Source: Candidatus Nomurabacteria bacterium (lineage in GTDB: Bacteria > Patescibacteriota > Minisyncoccia > Phycocordibacterales > UBA918). From it: DNA of 64,000 nt. Both the position numbers and the translations under genes were made by a program. Below the pieces are notes generated by a model that did not search any database, had not been told where the DNA came from, and worked only from the letters and a program-made list of their open reading frames with translations. The stretch is from positions 601,778 to 665,777 of the forward strand of contig JACKGH010000001.1 of the NCBI GenBank assembly GCA_020632075.1, read 5' to 3'. Position 1 is the first letter of the stretch. Every line of letters begins with the position of its first letter. Below, piece after piece: positions 2,976 through 49,500 of the stretch.

Positions 2976-3312
2976 AATTACACTTACTTAGTACTTGGTC
3001 AGACATTTTGGAATAAGTGAAATTCGCGGAACCAAGGAGTCTGAAGACGAGTCGTATATACATACGATGAGGCTTCAGACGACGTAGGTGACAAAGAAGT
3101 TCACTATTCCAAGATGGTCTGAAATAAAAAACACGCTCACATGAGCGTATCCAGGAGTCTTTTGCATCTGCCCTACACTGTAGGTTGAAGTTCGCACCGT
3201 TCTCGTGTGAGTGGTTGCGGACGGAGTCAGCGGGTCAAATCCCTCTTCCGTACTCTGGATACTTTCTATGAAATTGTGTTACTGCAGTATAACAGACACC
3301 GCGGCAGAAAAG

Positions 3313-9418: not shown

Positions 9419-9628
9419 TGCTACGTTCATTTTCATACAATGTAACAAAAGGAGTTTATGTTCACTTTTGTCTTATCCTTTGGTTAGGTCTTTCCCTAAA
9501 GTCTAATACCAGTTTGGAGAATGAGTATTATGTCTCATTATGTGCTCAATTGAGGCACATAATACCGACCAATTAGCTGTCATTGTGAATGGGTCACCCC
9601 ACCACGACAACGTGTCCAATTGGAATTA

Positions 9629-11079
<1,451 letters not shown>

Positions 11080-13608: not shown

Positions 13609-13674
13609 GAGTTTATCTCCCCATTTTTACGTTGAGTTTGCGGAGCCGGCGGCCGTGAGGCCGCCGGCAATTCC

Positions 13675-14361
13675 TTACCGACGCGGTGAGAATGCCCCAC
13701 CGCAGCAGTCGCCCCCTGATGCGTTAAAGTTGAGATCAACCCCCGCACCAGCACTGGACTCCGAACCAGAGATCGCTCCTGCCGAGCTGTTACCACCCGC
13801 GTTGATGAGAGTGGTATTTCCGGCACAGTTGCCGTCTTTACAGCTGTCGGCACGAATCTCGGCGGCCCAAGCACCATGTCCAAGAGCGGACAAGAGCTGA
13901 ACGCCGAGCTTCGCTACGAAGCGACCATTGGCCTCTTGCGAGAACGGCTGCGTCAGCAGAACAACGGGCTTACCGTTGTTCAGCTTCATCGTTCCATCAG
14001 GCCCTTCGGTCTGGTAGATGATGAGTGCTCCGACCTCCATCCCCATTTCGCTGGTGATGTGTCCTTGATACACTGCAGCCTGGTCGAGCAGTCGGTTACG
14101 AAGAATCGTACCGGCTGTCTTCCCTTCACCAAAGTGCACCGGGAATCCGGCACGGTAGTCAGTCTGCTGTTTCTTGAGCCAGCGGTCCGACAGAATCGGC
14201 ATCTGAGTATCGTACTCAGTGCGTTGATTATCATCCCACTGGTTGACGTACGTGTCATCCGAGACACGCTCGATCGGAGCTTTGGGACCCAATGAAGAGC
14301 ACCCCGTAGCTCCGACTACCAAGGCCGCAAGCAGCGACCGCGAGAAGATTTTCGTCTTCAT
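13675..14361 (-). CDS. lipoprotein, hypothetical
   Basis: Lipobox LVVGATGC after MKTKIFSRSLLAA; Gly/Ser/Cys-rich C-terminus. Confidence 0.55.
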   Translation of the reverse strand: MKTKIFSRSLLAALVVGATGCSSLGPKAPIERVSDDTYVNQWDDNQRTEYDTQMPILSDRWLKKQQTDYRAGFPVHFGEGKTAGTILRNRLLDQAAVYQGHITSEMGMEVGALIIYQTEGPDGTMKLNNGKPVVLLTQPFSQEANGRFVAKLGVQLLSALGHGAWAAEIRADSCKDGNCAGNTTLINAGGNSSAGAISGSESSAGAGVDLNFNASGGDCCGGAFSPRR

Positions 14362-14377
14362 TCTACATCTCCTGTTG

Positions 14378-15178
14378 TTAGTCGCAGATCACGCGGAATT
14401 GCTGCGGCATGTTCACGGTATCTTCGATTCGAAAATCGAAACTCGGAATATACTGATCGTCAGTACAGCAGCATCCAAGCACTTGGCTCGGTAGATGCAG
14501 ACTGTGATCACCATTGATCGGTTGACCTGTCGCTACGATCCGACACTCAGGCTCGACCGGAGGGGTCGGGGCTGGAGGCGGTGGTTTGGGTGGATCGTAG
14601 GTAAACCCTGCGTTGTTGCAGCTCTTGCCCGGGTCATCCCGGAACCAGTAGCTGAACAAACCCTCACCAAGCGGACAGATGAGCGCCTTGTCTTCGCGGC
14701 CAAGCAGTTTTTCAACCAGCTCGGTCACGCCATGATGACCATTGATGAGGCCATTCATGTAGAGAAAGACGATCTCGTCTGGTACCGTTTCCCAGTAGCA
14801 CTGCTCGGCAGCCGAATACTTCTCCGGATGCTCATACTTGTCCCGGGAGGTAAAGCAAGTTTGCTCTACCATCAGAGGTTTGAGTCCCTTGAGGAACTCT
14901 TTCTCTTCCTGGGTCTTACCTGGGAAACCAGCCGCAAGATCAGACCGATAGTGATCGACCGTCCGAAGACATTGGTCGAACAACGATCCAGGTGTTGCGT
15001 GGAATGACGAGTATCGCATCGATTTCCACTTTCCCCGAGGGGCAAGCGGAGTCGACGGAAACTCTGTTTTGATTTGGGCGTCGCCTGCGGGCTCTGCCAC
15101 AGACGAGGTTGAAAAACACAGGCAGCCGATGGCTACCATCGCAATCCAACCGAGCGCCCGCAAGCGTATGCTATGCAT
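14378..15178 (-). CDS. secreted hypothetical protein (Pro-rich segment PPKPPPPAPTPP)
   Basis: N-terminal signal peptide; in-frame 266-aa ORF. Confidence 0.5.
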   Translation of the reverse strand: MHSIRLRALGWIAMVAIGCLCFSTSSVAEPAGDAQIKTEFPSTPLAPRGKWKSMRYSSFHATPGSLFDQCLRTVDHYRSDLAAGFPGKTQEEKEFLKGLKPLMVEQTCFTSRDKYEHPEKYSAAEQCYWETVPDEIVFLYMNGLINGHHGVTELVEKLLGREDKALICPLGEGLFSYWFRDDPGKSCNNAGFTYDPPKPPPPAPTPPVEPECRIVATGQPINGDHSLHLPSQVLGCCCTDDQYIPSFDFRIEDTVNMPQQFRVICD

Positions 15179-27908: not shown

Positions 27909-29297
27909 TTACCGAAGTGGCGCGAAGTTGGCCTTCGTCTTTGCAATTACATCGATCTTAGTTGGTCCGAGCTCACAGAGCGCCGAGGTGATCTCTTCAT
28001 AGATACGCGCGAGATCAGCCCCGGTCGGAGCAAAATAAGCATTCTCAGGAGCCGTCGCGATCGCTTGAATAAAGGAACGATCAACCCCTTCACCAAGCCC
28101 GATAGCGTAGATCTCGATACCAGTCTCATCAAGTTGCTTTGCGGCAGTAATTGCCGCTGTCACGATCTCTTCATCTCCTTCTGCGGTTGGCAGACCGTCT
28201 GTCAGTAGCACCAAGACACGACGAGCGTTTTCATTATGCTGTGCTGAGTTAAGGACAGCATCTACTAACGAGAACGCGGCTGGTGTGTTGGTAAAGCCAG
28301 TTTCTTCAGCCGCATCAATTTTTAGGCCTCGTACCAACTCAGCTACATTCTGTTGTGTGCGAGAAAGTCCAGAAACTATCTGCGCTTCTGTCGCAAAGGT
28401 TACCACCGCCACCTGGTCGTTCTCCTGCAGCGAGGAAACAAACTGTTCTGCGGCCGCAAGTGCTGCCGAGATCGGCTGTGGCGGATCGCCCCCGTCGTTA
28501 TTCATACTACCTGACAGGTCGATGCCGAGCGCAACATCAGTTGGGATGACACAACTACGCACCGTCTTCGCGATCGGATTAGGCCAGGTAAACACTAGAT
28601 CCTGCGTCGACCTGGCTGGGATGAGTTCCGCAAGTGTTTGAGATGCAGCAACTGGTTCTCCTCCTTCATTGAAGATAGTCGCCACCACCTCAACTGCGTT
28701 TGCATCTGTTAGTGCTGTGTTTTCGATCTCGACATCAAGTCGTGGTCTCGTATCTGCTCGGATGAGTTCAATCTCTTGGGACCGGAATTGATCACGACCC
28801 ACTGACGCAGGGATCCACATATCCGCTTGTTGCAAGACCAATCTTGTTTCGGTCACCGGCGCTGCCCCATCAGTCTGTATCCTTCCTTCAAAGATCGGGT
28901 AGACACTGTTTGGTGGCAAAATAGTACTACCTGACCGAGTCGCAACCAACGTATTACCATTGTATAACTCAAAGGTATAAGGCAACTCTGGTGTTGCTGC
29001 TACCTGGTTTTGATTATCAACATAGGCAACAACGTTGTACTGACCCTCGACGATCTCGAAACTCTTTGCCCAGACCAACCGTGGCGGAAGCACGTCTGCT
29101 GTACAAATACGCACACAAGAACCACCACAGTCGATTCCTCGTTCATCGCCACTCTGTTTTCCGTCAAAGCAGCTTGTTGGTTCGTAATACACCGTAAAGT
29201 ACACCAACGCAAAAACGAGTACCCAAAACAAACCAAAACCAGTACCGTACTGAATACGGCGGCCAATTGCCCACGGGCGCATAGTTCTACGACTCAT
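27909..29297 (-). CDS. membrane-anchored von Willebrand factor A domain protein
   Basis: N-terminal TM; Cys-rich motif CFDGKQSGDERGIDCGGSC; C-terminal VWA with MIDAS DLSGSM and LLTDG. Confidence 0.8.
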   Translation of the reverse strand: MSRRTMRPWAIGRRIQYGTGFGLFWVLVFALVYFTVYYEPTSCFDGKQSGDERGIDCGGSCVRICTADVLPPRLVWAKSFEIVEGQYNVVAYVDNQNQVAATPELPYTFELYNGNTLVATRSGSTILPPNSVYPIFEGRIQTDGAAPVTETRLVLQQADMWIPASVGRDQFRSQEIELIRADTRPRLDVEIENTALTDANAVEVVATIFNEGGEPVAASQTLAELIPARSTQDLVFTWPNPIAKTVRSCVIPTDVALGIDLSGSMNNDGGDPPQPISAALAAAEQFVSSLQENDQVAVVTFATEAQIVSGLSRTQQNVAELVRGLKIDAAEETGFTNTPAAFSLVDAVLNSAQHNENARRVLVLLTDGLPTAEGDEEIVTAAITAAKQLDETGIEIYAIGLGEGVDRSFIQAIATAPENAYFAPTGADLARIYEEITSALCELGPTKIDVIAKTKANFAPLR

Positions 29298-29329
29298 GAT
29301 GTCTCTATTGTATCAGGTAACCCGCCCCA

Positions 29330-29375
29330 TCAGCAGCTGTACTCACAAAGAAAACACGAGACCTGTAGGACTCGT
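29330..29375 (-). terminator. rho-independent terminator after giant protein B
   Basis: gaaaacacgagacctgtaggactcgtgttttc perfect 11-bp inverted repeat. Confidence 0.55.
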
Positions 29376-29387
29376 GTTTTCTTGTCT

Positions 29388-32300
29388 TTAGGTCTCCTCA
29401 ACTCGACCTGGCGTCTCAACTGTAACCTGAGTGCTTCCCTTCGCTCCAGTCGTCGATTCGACACAATCGAGTGTATACGTACTCTTTGCAGTGATCGGAC
29501 CAGTCACAAGTGACCCGGTTGGACCGGACACACTCGGATCAAAATTATGTGTCGCGATCTGAGGTCCGTACAGCGAACAGGATATTGGGTATGATACTTT
29601 TGTGTCCCAGTGGATCGTTGCTTGATCACCACTTTTCACAAAGTCTTCGATGGTCAGGGTCATCGGTAATAGTGGTGCAGCGAGCTCGTTCGTGATCGTT
29701 ACAATATTATCCGTCTCATCTCCCTCTTCGATCTTATCAGTGCTATCGACATGCACAATGACTCGATACGGTCCAAACGGCACATCAATGGCAAGTAACT
29801 CATTTTGAGCTGGAGTATCACCAGTAGCAAGACCAGCAAAACTCGGATTCACTGTTGCATCAATGGTTCCATCATTCCCAAAATCTACATCAAGTTGGTT
29901 GATGAACGGACCAGCTGAACCTTCACCATCATTACGAACCACATAAGCAAGAGTAAGCGCGTGATAGGTACCAGTAGTAACATCAAACGCAGCTGATGGT
30001 GTCACACTACCGACGATAGGAAGCAAGTTTGGTGGCGTCATCGCACGAATTTGTACAGTTGCTGGTGCTGAGGTGCCGCCTGGTCCAGTACAGACGATCG
30101 TATAGGTCTGATCTGCGGTAATGTTGCTGATCATCTCACTACCAAGTGGTACAGCCTTACTTCCTGCCCAGTCACCACTGGCGGTACATTCAGTTACCGA
30201 TCCAGTAGTTGTCCAATCTAACGTGACATTCCCATGATATGGCACATCGATCGGCACAGTTGAACCATTAACAGTCAACGATACAGTTGGGGTTACATAC
30301 ACTGTGTAATCGAGATATGTCTGAGATCCTTCATACTGCACCGTAATACGTTCAGTCTCGGTTCCTGGAGCACCATTATCTCCGGTAACCTCCCAAAATG
30401 CACTGGCAGCATTTTGTAGTACATCAATTGCATCAGGACTATTGGAATCAGTCATTGATGTTGCAGGGTCAAGTGTGATATCAGGGTCCGAACAATCATG
30501 ATTGTCACCAAAATGAACCGTTAGATTTTCGACTTGTCCATTCATCAAATTTCTTGCCGCGATACTACCCGGACCTACTGCGATCGGCAGGTTTGTGTAG
30601 ATATCACAAACCGACACCAGACTTGAGTTTTCATCTGGATTGACCGTGATCGTTCGCGATGGACAATTAGTCGACCAAGCACCGGCCGTATCCTTTACTT
30701 TGTAGTACACAGTGTATACACCCGGAGTCAGTGCAGCCGTATCAAAACTTGAATCGCTGCCTGGTCCGTCACTATGCCACAAAGTTCCAGTTTCACACGA
30801 GGCGATTCCATTACCGACACGCCATTCGTGCTGCGCTATTCCGTTTACCGCATCATAGCCCATACCCTCAAAATGCACACTCGCCCCATCTGAAACCGTC
30901 ACTGCACCTGCCGGTTGCAGGATGAACGCCATCGGTGGCTCATTTAGAGGAGCATCACAAGTACCAGCAACTGCATTCCATGTGTATGCGTCCTGACAAC
31001 TAAATTCACATTTCGCTGTTGTATTTACAGCTGAATACACTTTTTGAGTATCAACCACAAGATCCAGCTGATCACTAACATACAAGACTGCATGCAGTGG
31101 GGTTATCCCGAGACATTGCGCTGTAGTGGCAGGAATACATCTCGCTCCATCCCACTCTTCGTCAGCCGCACATAAAGTCACCGAAACAGACCGCCAACCT
31201 GAAGTCAACGCACCATCATCCTGTGCTAAAACTTGAAAGGTCTTCACGCCACCGGTCAGCCACGCATGACTAGTTGGCAAATGCGTATCACTAGGAATAT
31301 ATCCAACACCTGGCAGCCACTCATCGACCACAGCGTCCATGTTCCAATCAATGCCATATCGAATCAGATCACCCGGGTCAGACGCAACGATCGTAAAGCG
31401 CTGCTGATCACCACTTAAATTACTATTACCACTATCTGGAGTAACCACTGGCACACTTGGCGCCGCGTTTGCTTCAACGCCAGCAGTTCGTACGGTATAC
31501 ACGATGGTTGTGGCAGGAATTGGATGCTGGTACGGCGTCCAACTATGACCACTGTCACCAAGAAGTAAACCAGAAATGGTTCCGGTATATCCAGTCAAGC
31601 TGACACCAGCTGGTTGTTCACTCATCGGAGTATTGTCCCAAGAGGTACGACAGATACCATCGATCCATTCATACTCATAGAAAAACTGCCCATAGGTTGC
31701 ATCAAAGTGAAATTCTGCAGTGACTGTTCCGGGTGACGTGATGCGATACACATTCCCGCCTTCTGGCGATAGTCCAGCAGTGGAACCACTGAGATCAAGA
31801 CTCATTTCTTCGGGATGAACCGACAGCGGCACGTATATGCCATACATGCCAGATACTAAACTTGCGCTACCGAGAAAGTACACCGGACTACAATCGCCGA
31901 TCTGCGTTTGAGCCAGGTTCACCACTGCCTTCTCTCCCCCATCAGGCCACGCCGCATCAGTTTGCCATACACCATACGGTGTATCCATCGCGTATCCCGT
32001 TCCATGCCAGGCTATCTCTCCACGAGCCGGTTCAAATCGTAAACGAGTACCGACCGGAACAGTACTATTATCAACCACCAATACACCCGTATCATGATCG
32101 TATACTGACGCCTCGTAAGTCACATTGACGTTTGGGTCCTCTAAACCTGGCACCCAGTTCAGAGTGCTCCCAAACTGAGTTGTCTGTCTATAGAACAGCA
32201 CACCATTGTACATACTGCTCACCACATCGCTTTTTCCAGCCGCAAGCACTGCCGTACCAGTCCACAGATAGCTGGCGGCAAAGAAGAATGCAACGAACCA

Positions 32301-33836
32301 CAGAAAGTGCGGCATACTACCGGTACCTGAGGTGTGCCGTTCATCGTCTTCATCAGCTTCAATGTGATTGAACTTCCTTCGCTGCAGTATAAGGAAAAGT
32401 ACAATGCCTACCGCCACTAAAACCAACAGTACTACAAAGATGCTTGCAATACTGATACCGCCATCTTCAGACAGAGTCGTGGCAGATGGGGCCATGCAAT
32501 TCCCGAGTGTTTTACAGTCATAGCGGACTGTTACCTCCTCTATCACCTCCCCTCCTTGCTTTAAAGTTGCAGAAAGTGTGAACGTGTCATACGCCTGCTT
32601 TGGAGTAAATATATCCGCAACAGCCATCATACTACCGGTGACATCTCCCTCATACTCATACTGATAAAATGGCATGTTGTTCGCACCGATCAATGTCAGG
32701 GTAAGTGTTACATCTTCAATTGTCGCTACCGTACCCGCTCCGTGTACACACGAGAACAAAACGGTTTCTTCTCCGGGTAGTAATGGAAATTCAGTGACAC
32801 TTGGAAAATTGATCCGTGGTACAGCTACGTTTTCACGCACAAATCGAACATTTATGACACTTTTAGTATCAATATATTTTGCTTCGGCGACCACCAAATA
32901 CACTGCACTGCTATTATCTGTGACCGTATGAGCAAGTTGTTGCGTGCTGTCAGTCGGAATGGTCACCATTTGTGTTTCTTGATGAACGATATTCTCTGAC
33001 CGCTGTTGATCCCACGCATAGGTGGTCCACGTCACTGGAATAGTCACTTCCTGACCCGTACTATTCTCAAGCATCGCCTTTACCACGATCGGTGATGATT
33101 GATCAACTTGCTTCGGTGCAGCAGTAAACTGATACGGTTCATTCGCTACCACCACCTCGTCCTTTTTAAATCCAACGTACCCCCCGATCTCACCAGCCAC
33201 CGCGAATGTTACTGAATTCCCGCCAACGTCATCGGTAAATGGCAGACCAAGTAAATTGAATCGCTTAGCACTTGAGAAGTAAAATACTGCTCGGTACTCT
33301 CCCGTCGCCAAACCAACCGGCACATTCCAGGTGAATGATGCTGGTACCGTTGCTTCAGCTGGAAGATCGATATCTTCTAGCACAAACCGCTGCTCTACCA
33401 CATCATACCCATTGAGCGGTCGCTCTCCAGATCTTGGTATCCGGAACACTTTCATGTAGACCGCGCCATCTATGATCGGATATGGATTCTCATTTTGGAT
33501 CGTGCCATGAAACGTCAGCGGAGCCCCATTTACGGTACTGCCCACTTGTGGAGAGAGGTCCACCTGCACCGAACCAAACGTGTAGTGATCAAAACAGGAT
33601 ACTGCACCATCTGGCAAGCCTACGATTGGACCAGCAAACAAACCAGGACCACCTGACGCAATGTATTCATCGGCTACGGTCTGTTCAGCCTCTGAGAGAC
33701 GTTCGTAATCTTCGACCGTCTCGATCTCAGTGACAAAATCAGGTGGCGCACTTCCCTGTTGCGCAAAGGACTGACTTGGCAAAAAAACCAAGACAAACAG
33801 GAACACTCCCATCCAATTTTTACCGATCGTATTCAT
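29388..33836 (-). CDS. giant cell-surface protein B (1482 aa): signal peptide, ectodomain, TM hairpin, large beta-rich ectodomain, C-terminal CARDB-like plus Ig-like module
   Basis: Signal peptide MNTIGKNWMGVFLFVLVFLPSQSFA; TM pair near aa 461-484 and 509-532; C-terminal ~200 aa homologous to the neighbour (NDGEGSAGPF ... VETPGRVEET). Confidence 0.8.
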   Translation of the reverse strand: MNTIGKNWMGVFLFVLVFLPSQSFAQQGSAPPDFVTEIETVEDYERLSEAEQTVADEYIASGGPGLFAGPIVGLPDGAVSCFDHYTFGSVQVDLSPQVGSTVNGAPLTFHGTIQNENPYPIIDGAVYMKVFRIPRSGERPLNGYDVVEQRFVLEDIDLPAEATVPASFTWNVPVGLATGEYRAVFYFSSAKRFNLLGLPFTDDVGGNSVTFAVAGEIGGYVGFKKDEVVVANEPYQFTAAPKQVDQSSPIVVKAMLENSTGQEVTIPVTWTTYAWDQQRSENIVHQETQMVTIPTDSTQQLAHTVTDNSSAVYLVVAEAKYIDTKSVINVRFVRENVAVPRINFPSVTEFPLLPGEETVLFSCVHGAGTVATIEDVTLTLTLIGANNMPFYQYEYEGDVTGSMMAVADIFTPKQAYDTFTLSATLKQGGEVIEEVTVRYDCKTLGNCMAPSATTLSEDGGISIASIFVVLLVLVAVGIVLFLILQRRKFNHIEADEDDERHTSGTGSMPHFLWFVAFFFAASYLWTGTAVLAAGKSDVVSSMYNGVLFYRQTTQFGSTLNWVPGLEDPNVNVTYEASVYDHDTGVLVVDNSTVPVGTRLRFEPARGEIAWHGTGYAMDTPYGVWQTDAAWPDGGEKAVVNLAQTQIGDCSPVYFLGSASLVSGMYGIYVPLSVHPEEMSLDLSGSTAGLSPEGGNVYRITSPGTVTAEFHFDATYGQFFYEYEWIDGICRTSWDNTPMSEQPAGVSLTGYTGTISGLLLGDSGHSWTPYQHPIPATTIVYTVRTAGVEANAAPSVPVVTPDSGNSNLSGDQQRFTIVASDPGDLIRYGIDWNMDAVVDEWLPGVGYIPSDTHLPTSHAWLTGGVKTFQVLAQDDGALTSGWRSVSVTLCAADEEWDGARCIPATTAQCLGITPLHAVLYVSDQLDLVVDTQKVYSAVNTTAKCEFSCQDAYTWNAVAGTCDAPLNEPPMAFILQPAGAVTVSDGASVHFEGMGYDAVNGIAQHEWRVGNGIASCETGTLWHSDGPGSDSSFDTAALTPGVYTVYYKVKDTAGAWSTNCPSRTITVNPDENSSLVSVCDIYTNLPIAVGPGSIAARNLMNGQVENLTVHFGDNHDCSDPDITLDPATSMTDSNSPDAIDVLQNAASAFWEVTGDNGAPGTETERITVQYEGSQTYLDYTVYVTPTVSLTVNGSTVPIDVPYHGNVTLDWTTTGSVTECTASGDWAGSKAVPLGSEMISNITADQTYTIVCTGPGGTSAPATVQIRAMTPPNLLPIVGSVTPSAAFDVTTGTYHALTLAYVVRNDGEGSAGPFINQLDVDFGNDGTIDATVNPSFAGLATGDTPAQNELLAIDVPFGPYRVIVHVDSTDKIEEGDETDNIVTITNELAAPLLPMTLTIEDFVKSGDQATIHWDTKVSYPISCSLYGPQIATHNFDPSVSGPTGSLVTGPITAKSTYTLDCVESTTGAKGSTQVTVETPGRVEET

Positions 33837-33927
33837 ATCTTATAGTTACTAACTGTAATATCATCATGATAGCAAGGAAACTAGTGTGTAGTGCTCTGAT
33901 TTGTAAACACGTGTAGACAGTTGCTTG

Positions 33928-33975
33928 CTCACAAAAACGCACCTGTTTGGGTGCGTTTTTGTGAGCAAATAATCT
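33928..33975. terminator. bidirectional terminator between the giant genes
   Basis: gctcacaaaaacgcacc-tgttt-ggtgcgtttttgtgagc, perfect 17-bp inverted repeat. Confidence 0.6.
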
Positions 33976-33980
33976 TTCGA

Positions 33981-36900
33981 TTAAGTTTCTTGGATGATTC
34001 CGGTTGTCTCAACGATCGCTGTGTCCTGGTAAACTGCGCCAGTAGTTGGCTCGGTGCAAGTTAATATGAATTCTGATTTTGCAATGACCGGACCGGTCGG
34101 AAGCTCACCAGTTGGGTTGATCGGGTTGCTCGGATCAAACGAATAGGTGGTAATGCCCGGACCAGCAACCTCACAGTCCATCGGGAACACTGCGTGTGTA
34201 TTCCAATCAAGCTTTGCAGGCAAACCAGCTTTAACTGTTTTTGGATTTATGTTCAATTCGATCCCCGGATTTGGGACTGGCACAACTGTATTTCGATACA
34301 CTATATTATCTGATTCGCCTGCAACACCTTCATCCACTTCATAATCTGAATCAACGGTGATCTTGACACTGTGCGTTCCAAATGGAACATCGGTTGCCAT
34401 GATCTCATTGAATGAACCTGTGTCTCCACCCCCACCTGACAATCCCGCAAATCCACCGAATGGACGCACCAATATATCATCAATAACCCCATCGTCACCA
34501 AAGTCTAACTCGAACTTCAACACGAAGTGACCTGCATCAGATTCGCCCTCATTTACGATACTGTAGCTGATAGAGAGATTGTCATACGTTCCTGTGACGG
34601 GATTGAAGGTAGCAGACGGTGTAAGGGCACTTACGCTAGGCACAAGATTAGGCTTTGTATTCACATTCACCACAACTGATTCAGTGATACTTGACCCATC
34701 ATCACCAACACAATCTAGCGTGAATGTTGTGTCAACCAAAACCACCTCAGTATCATCTCCACTTGGAGACACTGGAACTCCCCAGCTTCCAATACAACTA
34801 TCTACGTCAGTTGATGACCACTCCAAGTACACGCTATCACCCTCGGTAACAGTGATCGGACCATTCGAACCATCCGCGGTAAGTCCTAACGTCGGTGGTG
34901 GCGCCACCGGACCCGGGCCAGCTGCAGGATCAATGCAATTTGCACCATCGTAAACAAGATATGGTTCACACTCAGCTTCAACCACAACATAGTCTAGAGT
35001 GTTGCCTAGCAACCATGGACCAGTGGTCCCCCCACGGACACTCACTGTATTATCACCATGTGGCAAAGCACAATTTTTACTCAAGTTTGTATTCATTTGA
35101 TCACAGATTGTCGTGATCCCAGTATCAGCGTTTCGAACCGCTACAAACGGCCACAAAGCATTAGTTGTCCAAGTAAAGAGACTGTTACACGCACTCTCAC
35201 CTTCACCAATAAAACAACCAGCGCCATTGATGTTACCCCATGCAGCTGGCACTGGTGCACTTACCGTGATCGTCCTACTACACTGGACAATTCCTGAGGA
35301 ATACACCACTCGCAATACATAGTTTGTTGTTGATGGAGGGGTCACTGAATACGCATTGTGCTGGAGCGGAACCGCAACGCCATTGATAGTAGCCGAGACC
35401 GCACTTCCACCTGTAACGTCCCACAATAATGTGGTTGACTGTCCGGTCGTAATCGTCGCGTCTGAAGTATTGAGTGTACAAGCTGGCAACGCTACTGGCG
35501 GCGGAGGTGGCACTGAAACATCCTCACACTCACCATTGACAGCATTCCATACAGTACCAGCTACACAACTACCCGTTACCGCCACCGATGCAAGCACTGT
35601 CGAGTTGTCACGTGCTACAACCACGTTAGTACCATGTCCGATCGGTCGCAGCACATTGGTCATTGGGTTCATGAGCGGACCGCCATATGACCCATTGGTA
35701 GTTGAGTTCAACACATTTGCAAAACTTGCATTTTGAATATTCCAAGAGAACGTACCATTACAAGTGCCTTGATCAGCCTGAATAGTACAACCAGTACCGG
35801 TGATAGTAGCTGAAGGTGGCGCTATTACGTTAAAGTTAGTCGTGATTTGTCCACTGAAGTAAACTGGTGGCGGCAATGGATCCTCACAGTTGTACTGATA
35901 TCCAACAGTACCTCTCAAGATCTTTGACTTCACGCCAGGAGTACTGTATCCAGCGATACTTCTTACCACCAGTGAATTCGGAACCGGTACAGCTCCCAAG
36001 TACCCTCCGCCTGCCGGTCCCCAGATAGTATCGTACGTGACCGTCTCGGCTCGTTGTGCCTGCACATATGGCGCAATACGATCACCACAGTCAGGTGCGT
36101 ATGGAATGCTTTCACTAAAAGGGTTTGCTTGAGTTGTCACTGTAAGAGCCTCTCCCACATTGTACGTTCCTTTATTGAAACTGACAGTAAACGTCAGACC
36201 ATTTGATAAAGTTAAGGTTGCTGCATTGGTACGCTCTACTCCCACACCAAGGAGAACACCTCCAGCTACGATAATCGCAAAAGCGATGCTCATTAGTTCA
36301 GACGAGCCAACAGTACCACCCTGGTCATCAGGATCGTTGTGATCACTTCGCTTACTTTTTCGAATTGATGCAATGATCAATGCTGCAATCGTCAAAACAG
36401 CAAACAACACTACAATGAGCAGTAAGATAGCTTGCCCGGACATTTTTGGAGTAGCCTTAGTCGCTTGAGTTTCCATCATGCCACTCACATCCGTAAATAC
36501 TGGCGGCACATGACCAAACGAATCGGCCGCGAGTGTTTTCTCACCAGACCGAACCTGAACTCCTATCTGTGGATTTGCACAGGCTCCAGTGATCGGGACT
36601 GAGACTGTAGTTATGAACGCCTCTGCTCCGAGGTCAACAGCCTCTCCCGTTCCACACTGTGTTCCGGCTGTATCATAAATACTCACTGCAACAGACTGAC
36701 TCTCCTCGACTGTTGGTCGCGCAAACCAGGTCACGGTCACCGCAGCAGTATCACCTGCAGCATAGCTACCAGCATCGAGTGTGACATTCTGTACTCGACC
36801 GAGTTCATCACCAATGGTAAATCGAAATGGAATATCTGCAACCACCGGATCACCAGCCTCATCAACCAACACAAGAACTGATTCATACGAACCTGACTCT

Positions 36901-37628
36901 GCAGTTGTTGGCAAAGGAACAGAAACATATCCTATCTCATTTGAACCAAGAGTTGCTGAACCGAGTACCGCCGCATCAACACCCTCCACAACCGGACCAA
37001 GCAGCGTACCCTTATGTGTTTCGAAGTCGGTATACACTGTCGTCGTAGCACCTGAGTTTACTACCGTACATCTGATCGCTACAGACTCCTCACCGGAAAG
37101 ACGAGCGTCAGTGAGTGGTTCAAGCGTATCGCTGTCGCCCATGTACATCCCACAGTCTTGGACCACAACAGCACTACTTGTGCCTTCGAGCGTGACAACA
37201 CCAGCCATATTGGTAGCCAGCAACAAACCACTTGTGTTCTCAGCCACCACCCAAACTTCGTACTCACCAGAGAGAAAACCTGGCGCAGTGTAGTCAATCG
37301 AAACTGGCAACGTCTCATCAGCTCCGAGCCCAACGAGTCGATCCGCATATGACTGAGTATCGATCAGATACCGCTCATCATCGATCACTTGATACAGTTT
37401 AACTCCATACACGATACCCGGCTGCACCCCTTCCGCATTGTATAGATTGAAGAAAATAGTCATTTCAGACCCATTTTGAGCCATTATTTGAGCATCATAG
37501 ACTTCAGTGGTGGCGATAACGGTCATGTCCCCTGCCGGCTCGCCTGCAGACTGCGCTGACACAAACGTCGGCATGACCAGGAGCAACATCATCAAAAGAC
37601 CGGTTCGGATTCTACTAAAAAATAACAT
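33981..37628 (-). CDS. giant cell-surface protein A (1215 aa), paralog of B with the same architecture
   Basis: Signal peptide MLFFSRIRTGLLMMLLLVMPTFVSA; TM pair near aa 399-422 and 447-464; C-terminal module NEGESDAGHF ... IVETTGIIQET homologous to B. Confidence 0.8.
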   Translation of the reverse strand: MLFFSRIRTGLLMMLLLVMPTFVSAQSAGEPAGDMTVIATTEVYDAQIMAQNGSEMTIFFNLYNAEGVQPGIVYGVKLYQVIDDERYLIDTQSYADRLVGLGADETLPVSIDYTAPGFLSGEYEVWVVAENTSGLLLATNMAGVVTLEGTSSAVVVQDCGMYMGDSDTLEPLTDARLSGEESVAIRCTVVNSGATTTVYTDFETHKGTLLGPVVEGVDAAVLGSATLGSNEIGYVSVPLPTTAESGSYESVLVLVDEAGDPVVADIPFRFTIGDELGRVQNVTLDAGSYAAGDTAAVTVTWFARPTVEESQSVAVSIYDTAGTQCGTGEAVDLGAEAFITTVSVPITGACANPQIGVQVRSGEKTLAADSFGHVPPVFTDVSGMMETQATKATPKMSGQAILLLIVVLFAVLTIAALIIASIRKSKRSDHNDPDDQGGTVGSSELMSIAFAIIVAGGVLLGVGVERTNAATLTLSNGLTFTVSFNKGTYNVGEALTVTTQANPFSESIPYAPDCGDRIAPYVQAQRAETVTYDTIWGPAGGGYLGAVPVPNSLVVRSIAGYSTPGVKSKILRGTVGYQYNCEDPLPPPVYFSGQITTNFNVIAPPSATITGTGCTIQADQGTCNGTFSWNIQNASFANVLNSTTNGSYGGPLMNPMTNVLRPIGHGTNVVVARDNSTVLASVAVTGSCVAGTVWNAVNGECEDVSVPPPPPVALPACTLNTSDATITTGQSTTLLWDVTGGSAVSATINGVAVPLQHNAYSVTPPSTTNYVLRVVYSSGIVQCSRTITVSAPVPAAWGNINGAGCFIGEGESACNSLFTWTTNALWPFVAVRNADTGITTICDQMNTNLSKNCALPHGDNTVSVRGGTTGPWLLGNTLDYVVVEAECEPYLVYDGANCIDPAAGPGPVAPPPTLGLTADGSNGPITVTEGDSVYLEWSSTDVDSCIGSWGVPVSPSGDDTEVVLVDTTFTLDCVGDDGSSITESVVVNVNTKPNLVPSVSALTPSATFNPVTGTYDNLSISYSIVNEGESDAGHFVLKFELDFGDDGVIDDILVRPFGGFAGLSGGGGDTGSFNEIMATDVPFGTHSVKITVDSDYEVDEGVAGESDNIVYRNTVVPVPNPGIELNINPKTVKAGLPAKLDWNTHAVFPMDCEVAGPGITTYSFDPSNPINPTGELPTGPVIAKSEFILTCTEPTTGAVYQDTAIVETTGIIQET

Positions 37629-37774: not shown

Positions 37775-37882
37775 AGTTGGCGCCTACCTACTCTTCCGCT
37801 TGCGCAGTACCATCGGTGGTAGAAGACTTTACTTCCGTGTTCGGAATGAGAACGGGTGTACCCCTTCCCCCAAAGCACCAAC
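37775..37882 (-). rRNA. rrf: 5S ribosomal RNA
   Basis: Reverse complement contains CCGTTCTCATTCCGAACACGGAAGTAAAG...CCGATGGTACTG...GAAGAGTAGGTAGGCGCCAACTT with a helix I pairing of the ends. Confidence 0.85.
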
Positions 37883-38094: not shown

Positions 38095-38199
38095 AGAAAA
38101 CCATTTCACACGATCGTATACGCATATTCAATTTTGGTAACTTCCTTCACTCAAATCTATACATGATGTACAGCGTTCCCTATGGGAAACCACGTCCAA

Positions 38200-41445
<3,246 letters not shown>

Positions 41446-43174: not shown

Positions 43175-46100
43175 ATGAAAATGAACATTAAAAAACACTG
43201 GTGTTTATTGATAGCCACTCTTTCAGCCATTCTGGTGTTTGGATCATATACAACAAACGCACTAGCACAAGTAAAGGTCCTCTCCAATTCTCGACACGCT
43301 TTTACCAGCATTACGGCTGCGATCGATCAACTGCTTGGGGCGGGGCATGTCGGTACCGATATCATAGTTCATAGCACCAACATGAACACCGGTGGTGGCT
43401 TTATCGGCGATGCCTCTGTCACCCAAGATACAGACGCTGAGTACTATGACGAAACTGGTGCCACCACCACCTCAGCCGCCCCCTATCAAATGTACACGTC
43501 TTCATACTCAGGCTACTATGGTGACAACGTAAATATCTATAATGAATTCGACGGAGTTGATTTGACCCACAATTATGCGTACCAAGCAACGGCTTCACCA
43601 TTACCACCTCCGACTTTTATGACCGCACCAGGGCGCTCTGGCGACACCAGCAAATCAGGAGTGGAGTGGATACTCGATGGTTCTGATGTATTCATCGCCG
43701 GCACTACCCTCTCTGAACGCACTGCCCGCAACGCCGGTATGATGACAGCAATCAGATACAACCATCCAAGTTGGAATTGGTACGATGTGAAGGCAGCTGT
43801 TCGACAGACCGCCACAAATTGGGATGCAGGATATGACGGTGCAAATTATGGCTTTGGTGTCGTTTCCTACGCCTCATCTACCGCCCTTACTGATGGTGAA
43901 CTTCTGCTACAACCACCTGCTGCACTTGTTTCTACTTCATCTCTTGGACAGATTACTTTTACCCTCTACCCATACAAGCAGACGCGCCGCATAAAAGAAG
44001 TGCTATTTCAATTCGCCAGCGACCCTGGTTTCCAAGCTGACGAGCTTTCATACAGCGATATCACCGGCACACTCGGTGCCACCAAAGTGATGGAGTGGAC
44101 CAATACTACCGCAACCAGCACCATCCGCCCGTACTTTACGCCAGTAACCGATGCGTACTTCGTTTGGCTCACCGCTGATGACGCCAACGATAATACCGCA
44201 AATTTCTCCCGCATTGATACCTACGCCATTCTGGGACCGATCAGCCAAGAAGAAATTTCATTTTCAAATTCTTTTTCTCTCTCTTCACCGAGTGACGGAT
44301 CAGTGACCGACGAACTCCCCACCTTCTCTTGGACGGAAGCAGAGAGCTATGTAGGAATTGCGAAGTACCAACTATATATAGACGGCTCACTGCACACCGA
44401 CAACATCACTGGTACCAGTACTACCCTAGGCAGCGCACTGACTGATGGCTCGCATACCTGGTACGTCGTTGCTGAAAACGGCAATGGTGCTACCACTTCT
44501 GCCGCCAGCCGAACTATCGATGTGGTATCAGGCTACGCCGCTTCACAAACCTGGTATGTCGACAACGTCCTCGGCAACGATAGTAATGACGGTACCATCT
44601 CTTCTCCCTGGGCAACCCTCGCCAAGGCAGCCACTACCGCCCAACCAGGCAACACAGTCATTGTTGTAAAGAACGACGACGCTCCATACCGAGAGACACT
44701 CACTCCTGCAGCGGGTAACACACAAGACGGCAATATCACCTTCCGCGGGGTTGATGCTGCGCACAAGCCAGAGATCTGGGGCTCGACCAATGTGTCACAA
44801 GATATAGTTGGAGACTGGGCAGTATACGGCGGCGGCAATCCTGATACATACCAGCGCACAATGGCATTTACCAACACGATTGCAGCGGGCGTTTCAACCG
44901 ACACCCTCTCACAGCGTGTAAATGACGGTAATGACCAAACCGTCCTTGGCGAAGGAGAATGGGCCTATGTTAGCGGTGTTCTATATTACCGACTCCAGCC
45001 AAGTGAGGACATTAATTTACTCCATATTGAAGCCGGCACCGAGCCGCAGCTCCTTACATGTACTGCACGAAATACTTTCAAAGATATCATTGTGCGATAT
45101 GCAACCATCTTGAACGTCAGCCTTGGGACTGGATGCATCGGCGAGCGTCTTGAATCATATGGAAGTGGTCTCTATGGAGCCGCTCTCTTTGGTGCAGGCA
45201 CTGCATCAAATCTCGGGCCAATCCTTCGCTACTCCACCGTGAGCAACAATAAAACCTACGGCGTTTCTATGGCCGGTACAGCGTACGCGAGGATGTATAA
45301 CAACACCGTCTACAACAATGGCACGGGGTTGAGGCTTAGTGGAGCCGTTGATGATTCACTCATCCACAACAACATCTTTTTCGGCAATACGCAAAACATA
45401 GACACGAGTGCGATCGGCTCGGTCACTGGATTTGTTGCTTCACATAATAACTGGGCAAATGGCAGCGTTGATACTGGATGGCAAAACACATACCAAGGCA
45501 CCAATAACCAAGCCTCTACTTCCCCGCTATTGACTGACCCAGCAGCAAGAGACTTCTCACTCGACACACTCTCACCAAGTATCGACGCAGGTACTGATGT
45601 GTCACTAACTTCAGACACTATCGGCAATCCAATCTACGGCTCTCCCGACATCGGGGCTCTGGAATACCAGCCTCCATACACAATCGGAGTCGACACCCTG
45701 AACACATCTGGTCCCGTGCGCATTTACGCAGACGGAAAATATCGATACACCTCTGCTACCTCAAGCAGTTCGACCGCCAATCTTCAAGTCTCACCAATTG
45801 GCGGCTTTGGCTCTGGTGACCATGCCGAGTACATGAACCTCACTATCAACACATGGGAAACGGACGCTACTGATGCCACCAAGGAATGGACCGCAAGCTC
45901 AAGCTACGCTACTTCCACTACTTTCACAATCTCAGGCTTGGCGGCAAGCACTGCGTATGAAATAGAAGTTGATAATGCAGCATCTGCTTACATCTCGGGC
46001 TCAACCTGCGATTCAAACGAATGCACTACAAACGGTAGTGGGAACCTCAACTTCACCTACTCAGGTGGCTGGTCGACCCACACATTTACCGTCACTCGTA

Positions 46101-46591
46101 CAACAGTCTCTTCTGGCTCTTCTGGTGGAGGTGGTGGCAGCAGTTCACGCACAACCAAAAATGAAAGCACGACTGAACTCGTTTCTACCAGTACAGCTTC
46201 CTCTTCCCTCCTCATCACCGACGAAGCTACATACCGCCAGTCACTCCTCAACAAGATCAGCGAGCTTCAGAACCTTATTAAAGCGCTTACTGCACAGCTT
46301 TTGGTGGTACAGAGTAAGATGGACACACAACAATTCACACGACCACTAGATGTCGGCGATGAAGGATACGATGTGCTTGCACTTCAAATGAAACTCAATC
46401 GTCTTGGTTTTACCATTGCTGATTCAGGTCCCGGCTCTCCAGGACTCGAAACTCTTTACTACGGCCCACTTACTACCCTCGCCATTCAGAAGTTCCAGTG
46501 TCACTACAATATTGTCTGCGAAGGTACGCCACAGACCACTGGTTTTGGAAACTTCGGACCACAGACAAGAGCAAAGTTAAATAGTTTGTAG
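43175..46591 (+). CDS. large secreted right-handed beta-helix protein with FN3-like region and C-terminal peptidoglycan-binding (PG_binding_1-like) domain
   Basis: Signal peptide; DUF1565/pectate-lyase-like motif GTISSPWATLAKAATTAQPGNTVIVV..YRETL; repeated NNxxxNN beta-helix rungs; C-terminal DVGDEGYDVLALQMKLNRLGF...YYGPLTTLAIQKFQ. Confidence 0.8.
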   Translation: MKMNIKKHWCLLIATLSAILVFGSYTTNALAQVKVLSNSRHAFTSITAAIDQLLGAGHVGTDIIVHSTNMNTGGGFIGDASVTQDTDAEYYDETGATTTSAAPYQMYTSSYSGYYGDNVNIYNEFDGVDLTHNYAYQATASPLPPPTFMTAPGRSGDTSKSGVEWILDGSDVFIAGTTLSERTARNAGMMTAIRYNHPSWNWYDVKAAVRQTATNWDAGYDGANYGFGVVSYASSTALTDGELLLQPPAALVSTSSLGQITFTLYPYKQTRRIKEVLFQFASDPGFQADELSYSDITGTLGATKVMEWTNTTATSTIRPYFTPVTDAYFVWLTADDANDNTANFSRIDTYAILGPISQEEISFSNSFSLSSPSDGSVTDELPTFSWTEAESYVGIAKYQLYIDGSLHTDNITGTSTTLGSALTDGSHTWYVVAENGNGATTSAASRTIDVVSGYAASQTWYVDNVLGNDSNDGTISSPWATLAKAATTAQPGNTVIVVKNDDAPYRETLTPAAGNTQDGNITFRGVDAAHKPEIWGSTNVSQDIVGDWAVYGGGNPDTYQRTMAFTNTIAAGVSTDTLSQRVNDGNDQTVLGEGEWAYVSGVLYYRLQPSEDINLLHIEAGTEPQLLTCTARNTFKDIIVRYATILNVSLGTGCIGERLESYGSGLYGAALFGAGTASNLGPILRYSTVSNNKTYGVSMAGTAYARMYNNTVYNNGTGLRLSGAVDDSLIHNNIFFGNTQNIDTSAIGSVTGFVASHNNWANGSVDTGWQNTYQGTNNQASTSPLLTDPAARDFSLDTLSPSIDAGTDVSLTSDTIGNPIYGSPDIGALEYQPPYTIGVDTLNTSGPVRIYADGKYRYTSATSSSSTANLQVSPIGGFGSGDHAEYMNLTINTWETDATDATKEWTASSSYATSTTFTISGLAASTAYEIEVDNAASAYISGSTCDSNECTTNGSGNLNFTYSGGWSTHTFTVTRTTVSSGSSGGGGGSSSRTTKNESTTELVSTSTASSSLLITDEATYRQSLLNKISELQNLIKALTAQLLVVQSKMDTQQFTRPLDVGDEGYDVLALQMKLNRLGFTIADSGPGSPGLETLYYGPLTTLAIQKFQCHYNIVCEGTPQTTGFGNFGPQTRAKLNSL

Positions 46592-46592
46592 T

Positions 46593-49500
46593 TTAACTTT
46601 CTGGAGTTTCTTCTGGTGTCGGTTCAGTATTGTCAGCTGACGAAGGAACATCCTCAGATTCTGCCTGAGCAACCTCCTCAACGACTTCTTCTACCACCTC
46701 CTCCGTGACCTCCTCTGTTGAGACAGGCTCTTCTTCAGACAATCCTGGATCAGGTAACACCTCGCTTTCTTCTTCCTCAACCATGATCTCTTCACTTGAA
46801 GAAGCAGTGGTGTCTTCAGGCTGATCAGCATTGTCTTCTGCGCCAGTCTCCGAGGAAGTTGCAGTCTCGTCGTTTGCTTCACCATTATTTTCTGTCACAA
46901 CTTCATTGTTATTGGATGATGAAGGAGATGAGGCACCACCACTCTTCTCACTTGTAGATTCAGTTTTATTCGTATTGGTACCTCCTAGCTGCGCCTCCAG
47001 CTCTGCCACTCGTGCTTCGAGTGCAGCCGTGCGATCATCTTGTTCTTTATTCCAATCAGCAAGCTCAAAGACTCTGAGGAAGAGGTTCTCTAGACCTTCA
47101 AGCACCTCATTGATACGAGTCGTAAGCGACATTGCTCCAGAGCCACGAGGCGTGAGCCATGGCAGGTGATCGTTTTCATCCACGAAGGAGCGAATCTCAT
47201 CGAGGGTAAGGTGTTGGTAGGCCGGATCATCAAAAACATAGTCAGGGGCTGCGATGGTAATACCATCGTCAATAAAGGCTGAAGCGTAGATACTGCCCGC
47301 CACCGCGAGCTGGTAGCCTGGTGTGGTAGAGCCAATACCAACCTTACCGTCTGCGGTCACGATCATGTACGGATTGTTTGATGAGGACGCAACCAAAAAG
47401 ACAGGATTAGTCTGACCAACCATTGCCGCAACAGACAATCGAGCGTGCGGACTTGAAGTGCCGACTCCGATACCACCACTTGAATACGTCGTGCCGGTGC
47501 CGTCTACTCCCGTACCGAAGATGAGGTTTCCGATGTTGAGGACGTCGTCTTGCGTCGTGCTAAAGGCATCAATGTCATAACCGATGAAGATGCTGCGGTC
47601 GACGGAGACGGCGTTGTTGGCGGTTTGGTAACCAATGGCGATGGTGCCGGTGCCGTTGTTGGCACTTAGAGCGGAACGACCGATAGCTACGTTATCCGAT
47701 CCGGTGGTGTTATCAAGCAATGCACTGTAGCCAAGTGCGGTGTTGTATGAGCCAACCGTATTATGAAACATTGACCAGTAGCCATACGCGGAGTTGTATG
47801 AGCCGGTGGTGTTGTAGTGCAAAGAGAGATACGCTGTGGCGCTATTACCCCAACCTGTAGTGGTGTACCGCAACGCGCGACTTCCGATTCCAACATTGAA
47901 GCTTCCGGTTGTGAGATTATCTAATGCATACTGACCAATAGCGTAGTTATAACTAGCGTTTGCCATTGAACTTGATGCCGTGGCTCCAGCCAAGAAATAA
48001 CTGTTTCGAGTAGTTGAGCCCGATAGCACCGAGGTACCATTGAGCCAATATGCACGATCAGAAGTAGCAACAAACTGCGCTGCTGTTGATGTTGCAATTG
48101 CGGTGAGCTGTGCGGCAGTAACCGTGCCAGTAGCAGCAATACTTCCCGCCACCGACAGCTTCGCATACGGACTACTCGTCCCAATACCAACATTCCCAGA
48201 ACTGTATGACGTACCAGTACCGTCTACTCCCGTACCAAAGATTAAGTTTCCAATATTGAGGACATCATCCTGAGTTGTACTAAAAGCATCAATGTCGTAA
48301 CCGATGAAGATGCTGCGATCAACACCTGTGGCGTTTACTGCTGCGTTGTAGCCGATGGCGATGGTGCCGGTGCCGTTGTTGTTAAAAAGCGCATGGTAAC
48401 CGATGGCATTATTGTATGAGCCGGTTAAATTCTGGAACAAAGCACTATTACCAAAGGCGTTGTTATTAGAACCAACTGTGTTTAGCGCCATAGCTAAGTT
48501 GCCGAAGGCATTATTATCTGAACCCGTAGTGTTAATAAATAGCGACCAATATCCAAAAGCGTTGTTAAATGAACCGGTCGTGTTTGCTGAAAGCGAAAAC
48601 CAACCCAAAGCATTGTTATAGGAGCCAGTGGTATTAGCCTGGAGTGCACCACTACCAAGGGCAGTGTTGCTGCTACCTATCATCCCCGCCGCTCCTCCCT
48701 TTAGCGCACCTGACCCCACCGCAAAGTTGTAGTCTCCTGTGGTGAGATTAGCAAGCGCATTACTACCAATGGCATAGTTGTAATCAGCATCCCCGAAGGA
48801 ACTTGATGCTGTAGCACCCGCTAGAAAATAACTACCCTGAGTGGTTGAACCTGACAAGACTGAAGTATTGCCCAACCAATACGCATGATCATTGGTTGCC
48901 ACAAACCGTGCTGCAGTGGAGGTAGAAGTAATGGCTAGCTGTGTGGCAGTGATAGTACCGGTTGCAACAATGTCACCAGCTACTGAAAGCTTCGCATACG
49001 GACTACTCGTCCCAATACCAACATTCCCAGAACTGTATGACGTACCAGTACCGTCTACTCCCGTACCAAAGATTAAGTTTCCAATATTGAGGACATCATC
49101 CTGAGTTGTACTAAAAGCATCAATGTCGTAACCGATGAAGATGCTGCGATCAACACCTGTGGCGTTTACTGCTGCGTTGTAGCCGATGGCGATGGTGCCG
49201 GTGCCGTTGTTGTTAAAAAGCGCATGGTAACCGATGGCATTATTGTATGAGCCGGTTAAATTCTGGAACAAAGCACTATTACCAAAGGCGTTGTTATTAG
49301 AACCAACTGTGTTTAGCGCCATAGCTAAGTTGCCGAAGGCATTATTATCTGAACCCGTAGTGTTAATAAATAGCGACCAATATCCAAAAGCGTTGTTAAA
49401 TGAACCGGTCGTGTTTGCTGAAAGCGAAAACCAACCCAAAGCATTGTTATAGGAGCCAGTGGTATTAGCCTGGAGTGCACCACTACCAAGGGCAGTGTTG

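Follow-up and report, generated by a model that had tools for sequence, protein, structure and literature searches.

How does one open reading frame (ORF) come to encode two large ectodomains with a pair of hydrophobic segments between them? This question is raised by genes A and B, two consecutive genes on the minus strand of a 64,000-nucleotide stretch of Candidatus Nomurabacteria bacterium DNA (assembly GCA_020632075.1, contig JACKGH010000001.1, positions 601,778 to 665,777), which is referred to below as the window. Our analyses indicate, with high confidence, that A and B are in-frame fusions of a membrane-anchored protein (N) and a secreted protein (P). The second of the two hydrophobic segments is, on alignment, the relic signal peptide of the secreted partner, and signal peptidase I (SPI) probably cuts the A and B products at this segment into an anchor and a released subunit. 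The two-gene N/P surface cassette is widespread in Patescibacteria, and A and B are its fused versions.

The two giant ORFs, of 1215 and 1482 residues, are present where the initial annotation had placed them. Hydropathy also agrees with the layout that it had proposed for both products, namely an N-terminal signal peptide, an ectodomain, a first transmembrane (TM) helix (TM1), a loop, a second hydrophobic segment (segment 2) and a big beta-rich ectodomain. Signal peptides and TM helices were assigned by Kyte-Doolittle (KD) hydropathy and the −3/−1 rule, and the predicted cleavage sites are marked with an arrow (↓). The features of the two genes, with the structural evidence from AlphaFold2 (AF2), are as follows.

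33981..37628 (−): gene A, 1215 aa, predicted A-type fused N+P surface polyprotein, from the ORF and its translation.
37554..37628 (−): A residues 1-25, N-terminal signal peptide (…TFVSA↓QS), from hydropathy; A25 and Q26 do not vary across the A-family alignment.
36444..37553 (−): A residues 26-395, N-module ectodomain, beta-sandwich, a remote homologue of the B N-module by hhalign.
36363..36443 (−): A residues 396-422, TM1 stop-transfer anchor, followed by RKSKRS (KD maximum 3.4, with the basic cluster adjoining).
36297..36362 (−): A residues 423-444, cytoplasmic loop, read as the former tail plus the intergenic junction.
36222..36296 (−): A residues 445-469, internal signal-peptide-like segment LMSIAFAIIVAGGVLLGVGVERTNA, predicted SPI site A469↓A470; the A-family alignment has A469, T471 and L474 in every member.
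34899..36221 (−): A residues 470-910, P-module ectodomain, Cys-containing beta-sandwich repeats, from the translation and module matches in other members.
33984..34898 (−): A residues 911-1215, C-terminal module in common with B (immunoglobulin (Ig)-like, CARDB, Ig-like), ending in IIQET, by BLASTP and Pfam.
33925..33968, strand (.): terminator-like hairpin 3' of gene A, perfect 20-bp stem, from the hairpin scan.
29388..33836 (−): gene B (P0003), 1482 aa, predicted B-type fused N+P surface polyprotein.
33762..33836 (−): B residues 1-25, N-terminal signal peptide (…SQSFA↓QQ), from hydropathy.
32463..33761 (−): B residues 26-458, N-module ectodomain, consecutive beta-sandwich domains in the AF2 model, with the motifs CFDYYxFGS and LLGLxFTDD.
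32382..32462 (−): B residues 459-485, TM1 anchor, followed by RRK (KD 3.6; AF2 helix 463-489).
32316..32381 (−): B residues 486-507, cytoplasmic loop, acidic.
32235..32315 (−): B residues 508-534, internal signal-peptide-like segment MPHFLWFVAFFFAASYLWTGTAVLAAG, predicted cleavage G534↓K535, from alignment with the signal peptides of stand-alone P proteins; the AF2 helix covers 510-524 only.
31137..32234 (−): B residues 535-900, conserved P-module core, an all-beta domain (535-765) and, after it, a PKD-like domain.
30291..31136 (−): B residues 901-1182, variable beta-rich region, with partial matches in few homologues.
29391..30290 (−): B residues 1183-1482, C-terminal module in common with A (Ig-like, CARDB, Ig-like), ending in RVEET, by BLASTP and Pfam.
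About 29350..29381 (−): terminator-like hairpin 3' of gene B, GAAAACACGAG…CTCGTGTTTTC followed by TTTGTG, read by eye because its loop exceeds the length limit of the hairpin scanner.

Both proteins are acidic. In both, TM1 is very hydrophobic and segment 2 less so (KD 1.8 for segment 2 of B vs 3.6 for its TM1). The hydrophobic stretch of segment 2 opens with a Met in A (M446) and in B (M508), and a terminator-like hairpin of its own follows each gene, both as described previously. The sequences of A and B are identical across three independent assemblies from different sequencing runs; the fused ORFs are thus not assembly artefacts, an origin that was considered and ruled out. B is also identical to the NCBI protein KC877_04015 from a 'Candidatus Kaiserbacteria' metagenome-assembled genome, which, together with a 16S rRNA gene unlinked from the 23S-5S genes, agrees with the earlier assignment of this DNA to a bacterium of the candidate phyla radiation (CPR).

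The evidence for fusion comes from the homologues of B, which are numerous in Kaiser-, Nomura-, Moran-, Andersen-, Yonath-, Taylor- and Vogelbacteria. Their matches cover the N-module, the hydrophobic pair and about 365 residues past it, and all 44 of the 44 first-round homologues have TM1, a basic loop and a second hydrophobic segment. With one genome per GTDB species, 154 B-type matches were confirmed by tblastn, and 80 loci of species-representative genomes were surveyed for split and fused forms by local tblastn and ORF tracing. The N and P modules are fused in about 42 ORFs of these 80 loci, while a stand-alone N ORF of 460-540 aa, which consists of a signal peptide, the N-domain, a TM helix and a basic tail before the stop codon, is found in about 40. 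The 82 N-domains placed in a tree comprise 41 fused ones, 20 followed by a P gene, 10 preceded by a P gene, 7 without an adjacent P gene of the B_post type and 4 at a contig end. Thus, the halves are adjacent but separate in 20 + 10 loci and joined in 41, the pattern on which the gene-fusion ('Rosetta stone') criterion is based, and the suggestion in the initial annotation that each ORF might join an anchored protein to a second secreted one is borne out by neighbouring separate genes in about half of the B-type loci. The N-then-P junctions are operon-like in their coordinates, with ATGA overlaps in two loci (L040 and L050) and spacings of 1-13 nt in several more. Among the 7 N ORFs that lack a B_post-type neighbour, a secreted gene of greater divergence lies directly downstream of 2, the P gene of 1 lies 2 kb upstream and 2 are located at a contig start.

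Conservation across Patescibacteria points the same way, as the stand-alone second gene opens with a signal peptide that aligns with the internal segment of the fused proteins. The stand-alone P genes begin with a Met, a basic n-region and an h-region, followed by AxA↓(K/E)S(V)VW, and in the alignment the N-termini of 28 of them correspond, position by position, to the internal segments that fused proteins carry. For example, the stand-alone P at L001:8072-9883 in a complete Nomurabacteria genome starts with MIQGSLAGFVLALFFVLGVSPADA↓KSEVV, and its counterpart in B reads …TGTAVLAAG↓KSDVV…. The Met of A (M446) and that of B (M508) are best read as relics of the P-gene start codon. By rough estimate, the neighbour-joining tree of the N-domains requires at least 13 changes between the fused and split states. 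This suggests that the two states are functionally interchangeable, which is what cleavage would predict.

The internal segments have the anatomy of signal peptides: a K/R cluster after TM1, a short h-region and a G/P-rich c-region. They are homologous to the genuine N-terminal signal peptides of the 28 stand-alone P genes, and the small-residue (AxA) rule is followed at −3 and −1 (T-N-A↓A in A, A-A-G↓K in B). In 62 fused proteins, position −1 is A in 55 and A, G or S in 60, and position −3 is A, V, T, G or S in 58; the corresponding figures for the stand-alone P proteins are 22/28 and 26/28 at −1, and 26/28 for A, V or S at −3. Although they share only about 30-47% identity with B, the fused proteins keep the −3/−1 motif, which argues for selection of a signal-peptidase-type site. 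The 'TM hairpin' of the initial annotation was therefore half right: TM1 stands, whereas the second helix is replaced by a short h-region (a 15-residue AF2 helix in B, compared with 27 residues for TM1) with a conserved AxA site.

Gene A belongs to a sister family, remotely homologous to that of B as judged by profile comparison. Profile-profile alignment of the A-family and B-family N-modules by hhalign gave a probability of 97.1% (E 5e-11) over about 250 columns. A word-indexed search with the N-ectodomain of A returned two matches only (P0001 and P0002, 29% identity, both with the same layout), and it was this small family that entered the profile comparison. As that search missed A itself, an exhaustive profile search was used to define the A-type family. 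Using HMMER, it recovered 1831 representatives of clusters made at 50% identity, of which 974 reach E ≤1e-30. These representatives are mostly fused: of the best 148, 115 have TM1 and a clear segment 2, 26 have TM1 and a weaker segment 2, and 6 consist of N alone (414-466 aa) and stop at the TM helix. A signal-peptide-like segment 2 with a −3/−1 site is found in 139 of the 142 long representatives, and the literal motif A.A↓xT[FWLYVI] in 72. The A-type consensus runs from TM1 through a K/R run, a short loop and an h-region to GG..A(K/H/R)A↓DTF. The metagenome scan for A-type loci yielded 9 loci only. We also noticed that three A-type proteins (P0045, P0068 and P0074) appear to be three-unit chains, in which one more internal segment of signal-peptide type leads into an extra N-type domain or secreted unit; polyproteins of this kind may thus comprise more than two units.

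These observations can be combined into a model. The N gene encodes a type-I membrane protein with a signal peptide, a run of beta-sandwiches, one C-terminal TM helix and a short basic tail, and the P gene a secreted protein that is rich in beta structure, varies greatly and has a signal peptide of its own. In A, B and many other lineages, the stop codon and the N/P junction have been lost, such that the tail became a short cytoplasmic loop and the P signal peptide became the internal segment of the fused protein. In the proposed sequence of events, the N-terminal signal peptide would launch Sec export of the N-module, TM1 would halt transfer with the K/R cluster remaining in the cytoplasm, and the internal signal peptide would re-start translocation for the P-module. 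SPI would then cleave after the conserved AxA (TNA↓AT in A, AAG↓KS in B) and so free the P subunit from an anchor subunit that keeps the N-module, TM1, the loop and the signal segment, products that would match the two separately encoded proteins of the split genomes. The P subunit would probably be held on the cell via the N subunit or the wall, and the pair would form an anchor-plus-outer-layer surface structure or adhesin. That N and P associate as an anchor-plus-outer-subunit complex is plausible, with a chance that we put at somewhat under even.

The alternative that survives best is that segment 2 is a permanent TM helix, in which case A and B would each remain one polypeptide with two ectodomains and the fusion would tether the P-module covalently. 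We consider it unlikely, although it deserves to be taken seriously. A and B are single ORFs, segment 2 is hydrophobic in all homologues, and AF2 gives it a helix. It should also be noted that the site of B is atypical (AAG↓K, with G and not A at −1) and that its uncharged stretch is 23 residues long, and segment 2 of B might persist as a second TM helix. Yet small residues occupy −1 and −3 in 94-97% of the fused proteins, just as in stand-alone signal peptides, a feature needless for an uncleaved helix. Moreover, most members have a short h-region with a polar, G/P-rich c-region behind it, and the repeated switching between fused and split forms would be easier if both states yielded the same mature products.

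Besides the atypical site of B, several points weigh against fusion followed by cleavage and subunit association. Some of the N-then-P 'split' cases in metagenome-assembled genomes could be frameshift errors, an explanation that cannot apply to the 10 P-then-N cases. Structural constraint on the N-terminus of the P-domain could account for part of the conservation of AEA↓KS. The association of N with P is indicated indirectly, by gene linkage, fusion and a high single-chain predicted TM-score (pTM). In addition, the Pfam scan found no signal peptidase gene among the window ORFs examined.

A second alternative, which the initial annotation had raised, holds that M446 of A and M508 of B still act as start codons, by which the P protein would also be made separately from the same mRNA. 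Very little probability attaches to it. In its favour, the Met lies exactly at the start of segment 2 in both proteins, as expected of a relic P-gene start, and the genome apparently makes no use of Shine-Dalgarno sequences, so none would be required. The 3' end of the 16S rRNA (window 9600-9660, …GGAUUAAUUCC) lacks the CCUCC anti-Shine-Dalgarno motif and almost no gene has a Shine-Dalgarno sequence; for this reason, such evidence is uninformative on internal initiation. However, a Met is found near the segment start in 15 of the 62 fused homologues, compared with 19 of the 28 real starts, from which we conclude that the internal Met is not maintained by selection. There is also no promoter-like site just upstream of the internal ATGs at 36293 (A) and 32315 (B): the promoter scan found 15 sites in total vs 15.3 expected, hence no excess, and none upstream of the internal Mets. 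The −10-like TAcAAT box that many genes here bear directly before their ATG is missing from the internal ATGs as well, and cleavage alone would yield the same product. An internally initiated product thus fails as a feature of the family, and the architecture is unlikely to exist for the sake of internal initiation, which keeps a low probability for A and B taken individually. As a separate observation, a TAcAAT or TATAAG box stands about 1-12 nt ahead of the ATG in several genes (those of VWA, FtsW and B among them), a pattern suggestive of leaderless mRNAs.

With regard to domain identities, the BLASTP alignment of A with B is confined to the C-terminal 309 residues or so (40% identity, E 5e-53). 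The similarity between the two C-termini, for which a module of about 200 aa had been proposed, is therefore far beyond chance, whereas the module is longer than that. Its CARDB-like content is confirmed by Pfam CARDB (PF07705), which exceeds the gathering cut-off of 22.7 in both proteins (27.2 bits at A residues 1012-1108, 28.4 bits at B residues 1291-1380), and both proteins do end in ET. The module is also carried by other A-type and B-type proteins at 34-45% identity. Concerted evolution of the two C-modules was rejected, as the identity between A and B (40%) equals that between A and its orthologue (40%).

The AF2 model of B residues 1-900 (pLDDT 81, pTM 0.76), in which pLDDT is mostly above 90 over residues 78-440, shows the N-module as a run of beta-sandwich domains. 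In the P core, the PKD-like domain matched 4xed (E 2.7e-19), and residues 535-765 have no close relative among solved structures. Neither the N-module nor the 230-aa P core was matched by any Pfam or NCBIfam model. Foldseek comparison of the 900-residue model with the PDB returned only generic beta-sandwich arrays (A2M, complement and mastigoneme proteins) with TM-scores of at most 0.18; given these scores and the lack of a CxEQ motif, thioester proteins of the alpha-2-macroglobulin type were rejected. Sortase anchoring was rejected too, as A and B have no LPXTG motif and their C-termini (…IIQET and …RVEET) carry no hydrophobic tail; no sortase gene was found by the Pfam scan among the window ORFs examined. 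Judging from their anatomy, A and B would function in cell-surface display.

The extreme C-termini of the P-modules are themselves conserved. In a set of 184 proteins that includes P0008, P0020, P0028 and P0046, 50 end in …(N)W(K/R)EV(A/S/T)P with no hydrophobic tail after it. A second flavour, …xE(I/L/V/F), is found in many members (e.g., TVEEI, TIQEL and AITEI), beside which stand IIQET of A (33984-34004) and RVEET of B (29391-29411). These endings look like an undescribed C-terminal recognition or sorting tag.

Next to B lies the membrane protein with a VWA domain and a Cys-rich motif that the initial annotation had described, as follows.

27909..29297 (−): membrane VWA protein, 462 aa, first gene of the VWA-FtsW envelope block, from the ORF and Pfam.

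The protein has an N-terminal TM helix, the motif CFDGKQSGDERGIDCGGSC at residues 43-61 and a Pfam VWA domain (PF00092) at residues 254-433 (79.1 bits vs a cut-off of 23.8). Its Cys-rich motif, CFDGKQSGDERGIDCGGSCVRIC when taken over residues 43-65, sits just outside the TM helix and appears to resemble the CxNGxxExGExCDCG start of disintegrin or myxococcal Cys-rich repeats. Downstream are FtsW/RodA, a GT4 glycosyltransferase (on the opposite strand), a Bac_transf sugar transferase, an epimerase, FolD, SecD and SecF, which agrees with the SEDS protein and glycosylation genes reported there, and this block is syntenic in other genomes. The VWA protein has 991 matches at E ≤1e-10, the best 120 of which are 58-68% identical over the full length. 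It is unusually conserved across Paceibacteria, always before FtsW, and may have a role in the envelope or in division. The gene orders at the VWA locus are as follows.

Window: 23S-5S rRNA, A, B, then VWA.
L095: rRNA, two other genes, A orthologue, then VWA.
L093: B orthologue directly upstream of VWA.
L094: rRNA, transposase, then VWA.
L045: B-like gene between VWA and FtsW.

The initial annotation's dedicated attachment module made up of A, B, VWA, the SEDS protein and the glycosylation genes is highly improbable: these genes are adjacent within the window, an A-type or B-type gene adjoins VWA in four related genomes (the window, L093, L095 and L045) and VWA domains frequently mediate adhesion, but A and B are each followed by a separate terminator-like hairpin, the block from VWA through SecDF is conserved with or without A/B genes while the slot upstream of it varies (and holds a transposase in L094), the identities of VWA (58-68% among the best 120 of 991 matches) and of the A/B homologues (27-47%) differ in a way that implies different evolutionary regimes, and tblastn with the window VWA, the only query used, found no VWA match near the P0007, P0016 and P0001 loci or most of the 80 loci, many of which are short. 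The link between A/B and VWA is positional and lineage-specific, with adjacency in close relatives only, and is no evidence of a shared machine. A role of A and B in host attachment is plausible.

The proposed processing of A and B has parallels in better-known precursors. Flavivirus polyproteins are processed at internal signal peptides. Cytochromes b and c1 are encoded by separate genes in other bacteria, whereas in Bradyrhizobium they are reportedly joined in the FbcH precursor, which Thöny-Meyer and colleagues are said to have found, around 1991, to be cut at an internal signal sequence; the separate and joined forms parallel the split and fused forms of N/P. The bunyavirus Gn-NSm-Gc precursor is likewise a polyprotein processed at internal signal peptides (PMC6784171). 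In all three, as proposed for A and B, one ORF encodes a TM stop-transfer segment and then an internal signal sequence, and signal peptidase cuts at the opposite face of the membrane and thereby separates the membrane product from the exported one. They differ from N/P in being viral glycoproteins or a respiratory complex with experimentally shown cleavage, whereas N/P cleavage is predicted and the N/P surface proteins form a superfamily, hundreds strong, in which fusion has occurred independently many times.

Among surface proteins, Clostridioides difficile SlpA is a single secreted precursor cut into two surface subunits that re-associate non-covalently, to which the proposed processing of A and B is similar. 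Unlike A and B, SlpA is cut after export by the cysteine protease Cwp84, has no mid-protein TM segment and shares no homology with them. A and B also resemble surface proteins with CARDB, PKD and Ig-like domains and MG-domain proteins (alpha-2-macroglobulin fold) in having CARDB in the C-modules, a PKD-like domain in the P core and MG/Ig beta-sandwich arrays, and they differ in their global TM-scores of only 0.1-0.18, the absence of CxEQ and LPXTG, and an N-module and P core outside all Pfam and NCBIfam models. [quoted passage not shown] Similarly, N is a beta-sandwich TM anchor of 460-540 aa and P a larger and more variable secreted subunit, and in split genomes the N gene adjoins the gene for the large, beta-rich P. 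No sequence or fold homology of N/P to SlaA/SlaB was found. N/P is bacterial, not archaeal, and is known from genes, a lattice having been seen only for the S-layer proteins; in addition, the N and P genes often form one ORF joined by an internal signal peptide. The literature search returned nothing on internal signal peptides or the A/B family in Patescibacteria.

Several other features of the window were noted. Two more giant secreted proteins are encoded at 43175-46591 (+; 1138 aa, with beta-helix and PG_binding_1 domains) and at 46593-52361 (−; 1922 aa, without a Pfam match). Both have an N-terminal signal peptide only, with no internal hairpin, which means that N/P fusion is not universal among the giant proteins of this genome. 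The 23S (38177-41436) and 5S (37775-37882) rRNA genes lie directly upstream of A, and the 16S rRNA gene is 27 kb off. The 23S rRNA measures 3260 nt vs a 2925-position model, and about 230 nt of it (RNA positions about 2076-2303) have no match in the 23S rRNA of L094; this extra stretch is probably an rRNA insertion, of a kind common in CPR. Window positions 12046-15178, about 1 kb from the unlinked 16S rRNA gene, have a G+C content of 0.54-0.57 vs about 0.48 elsewhere and carry three ORFs without a Pfam match, one of which has a lipoprotein-type signal (…LVVGATGC); this region may have been inserted from a foreign source or mis-binned. A SAM riboswitch (55.7 bits) was noted at 3161-3265, directly upstream of the gene for S-adenosylmethionine synthetase (2028-2975).

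For the CPR/Patescibacteria, the envelope and the surface that meets the host are essentially uncharacterized. To our knowledge, natural bacterial polyproteins resolved at an internal signal peptide are very rare. The analyses above define a large superfamily of surface proteins, with 1831 representatives of the A type and 154 matches of the B type, and a family with this many independent fusions would be a useful bacterial model for stop-transfer and re-initiation in membrane topogenesis. S-layers have been reported in some species of CPR/Patescibacteria only (PMC13293708). For annotation, a 'mid-protein TM hairpin' in a giant secreted protein may flag a gene fusion. Cleavage at the internal segment predicts mature N-termini at A470 of A and K535 of B, for which cultivated Patescibacteria are the place to look. 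On a broader and quite speculative view, SPI might act as a polyprotein processor in Patescibacteria, with two (sometimes three) Sec exports per ORF, the anchor and outer subunits might build a surface layer or host-attachment coat on these ultra-small episymbionts, and the N/P superfamily might be the main envelope-surface system of the Paceibacteria. If true, the polymorphism between fused and split forms would be a natural experiment in polyprotein evolution.

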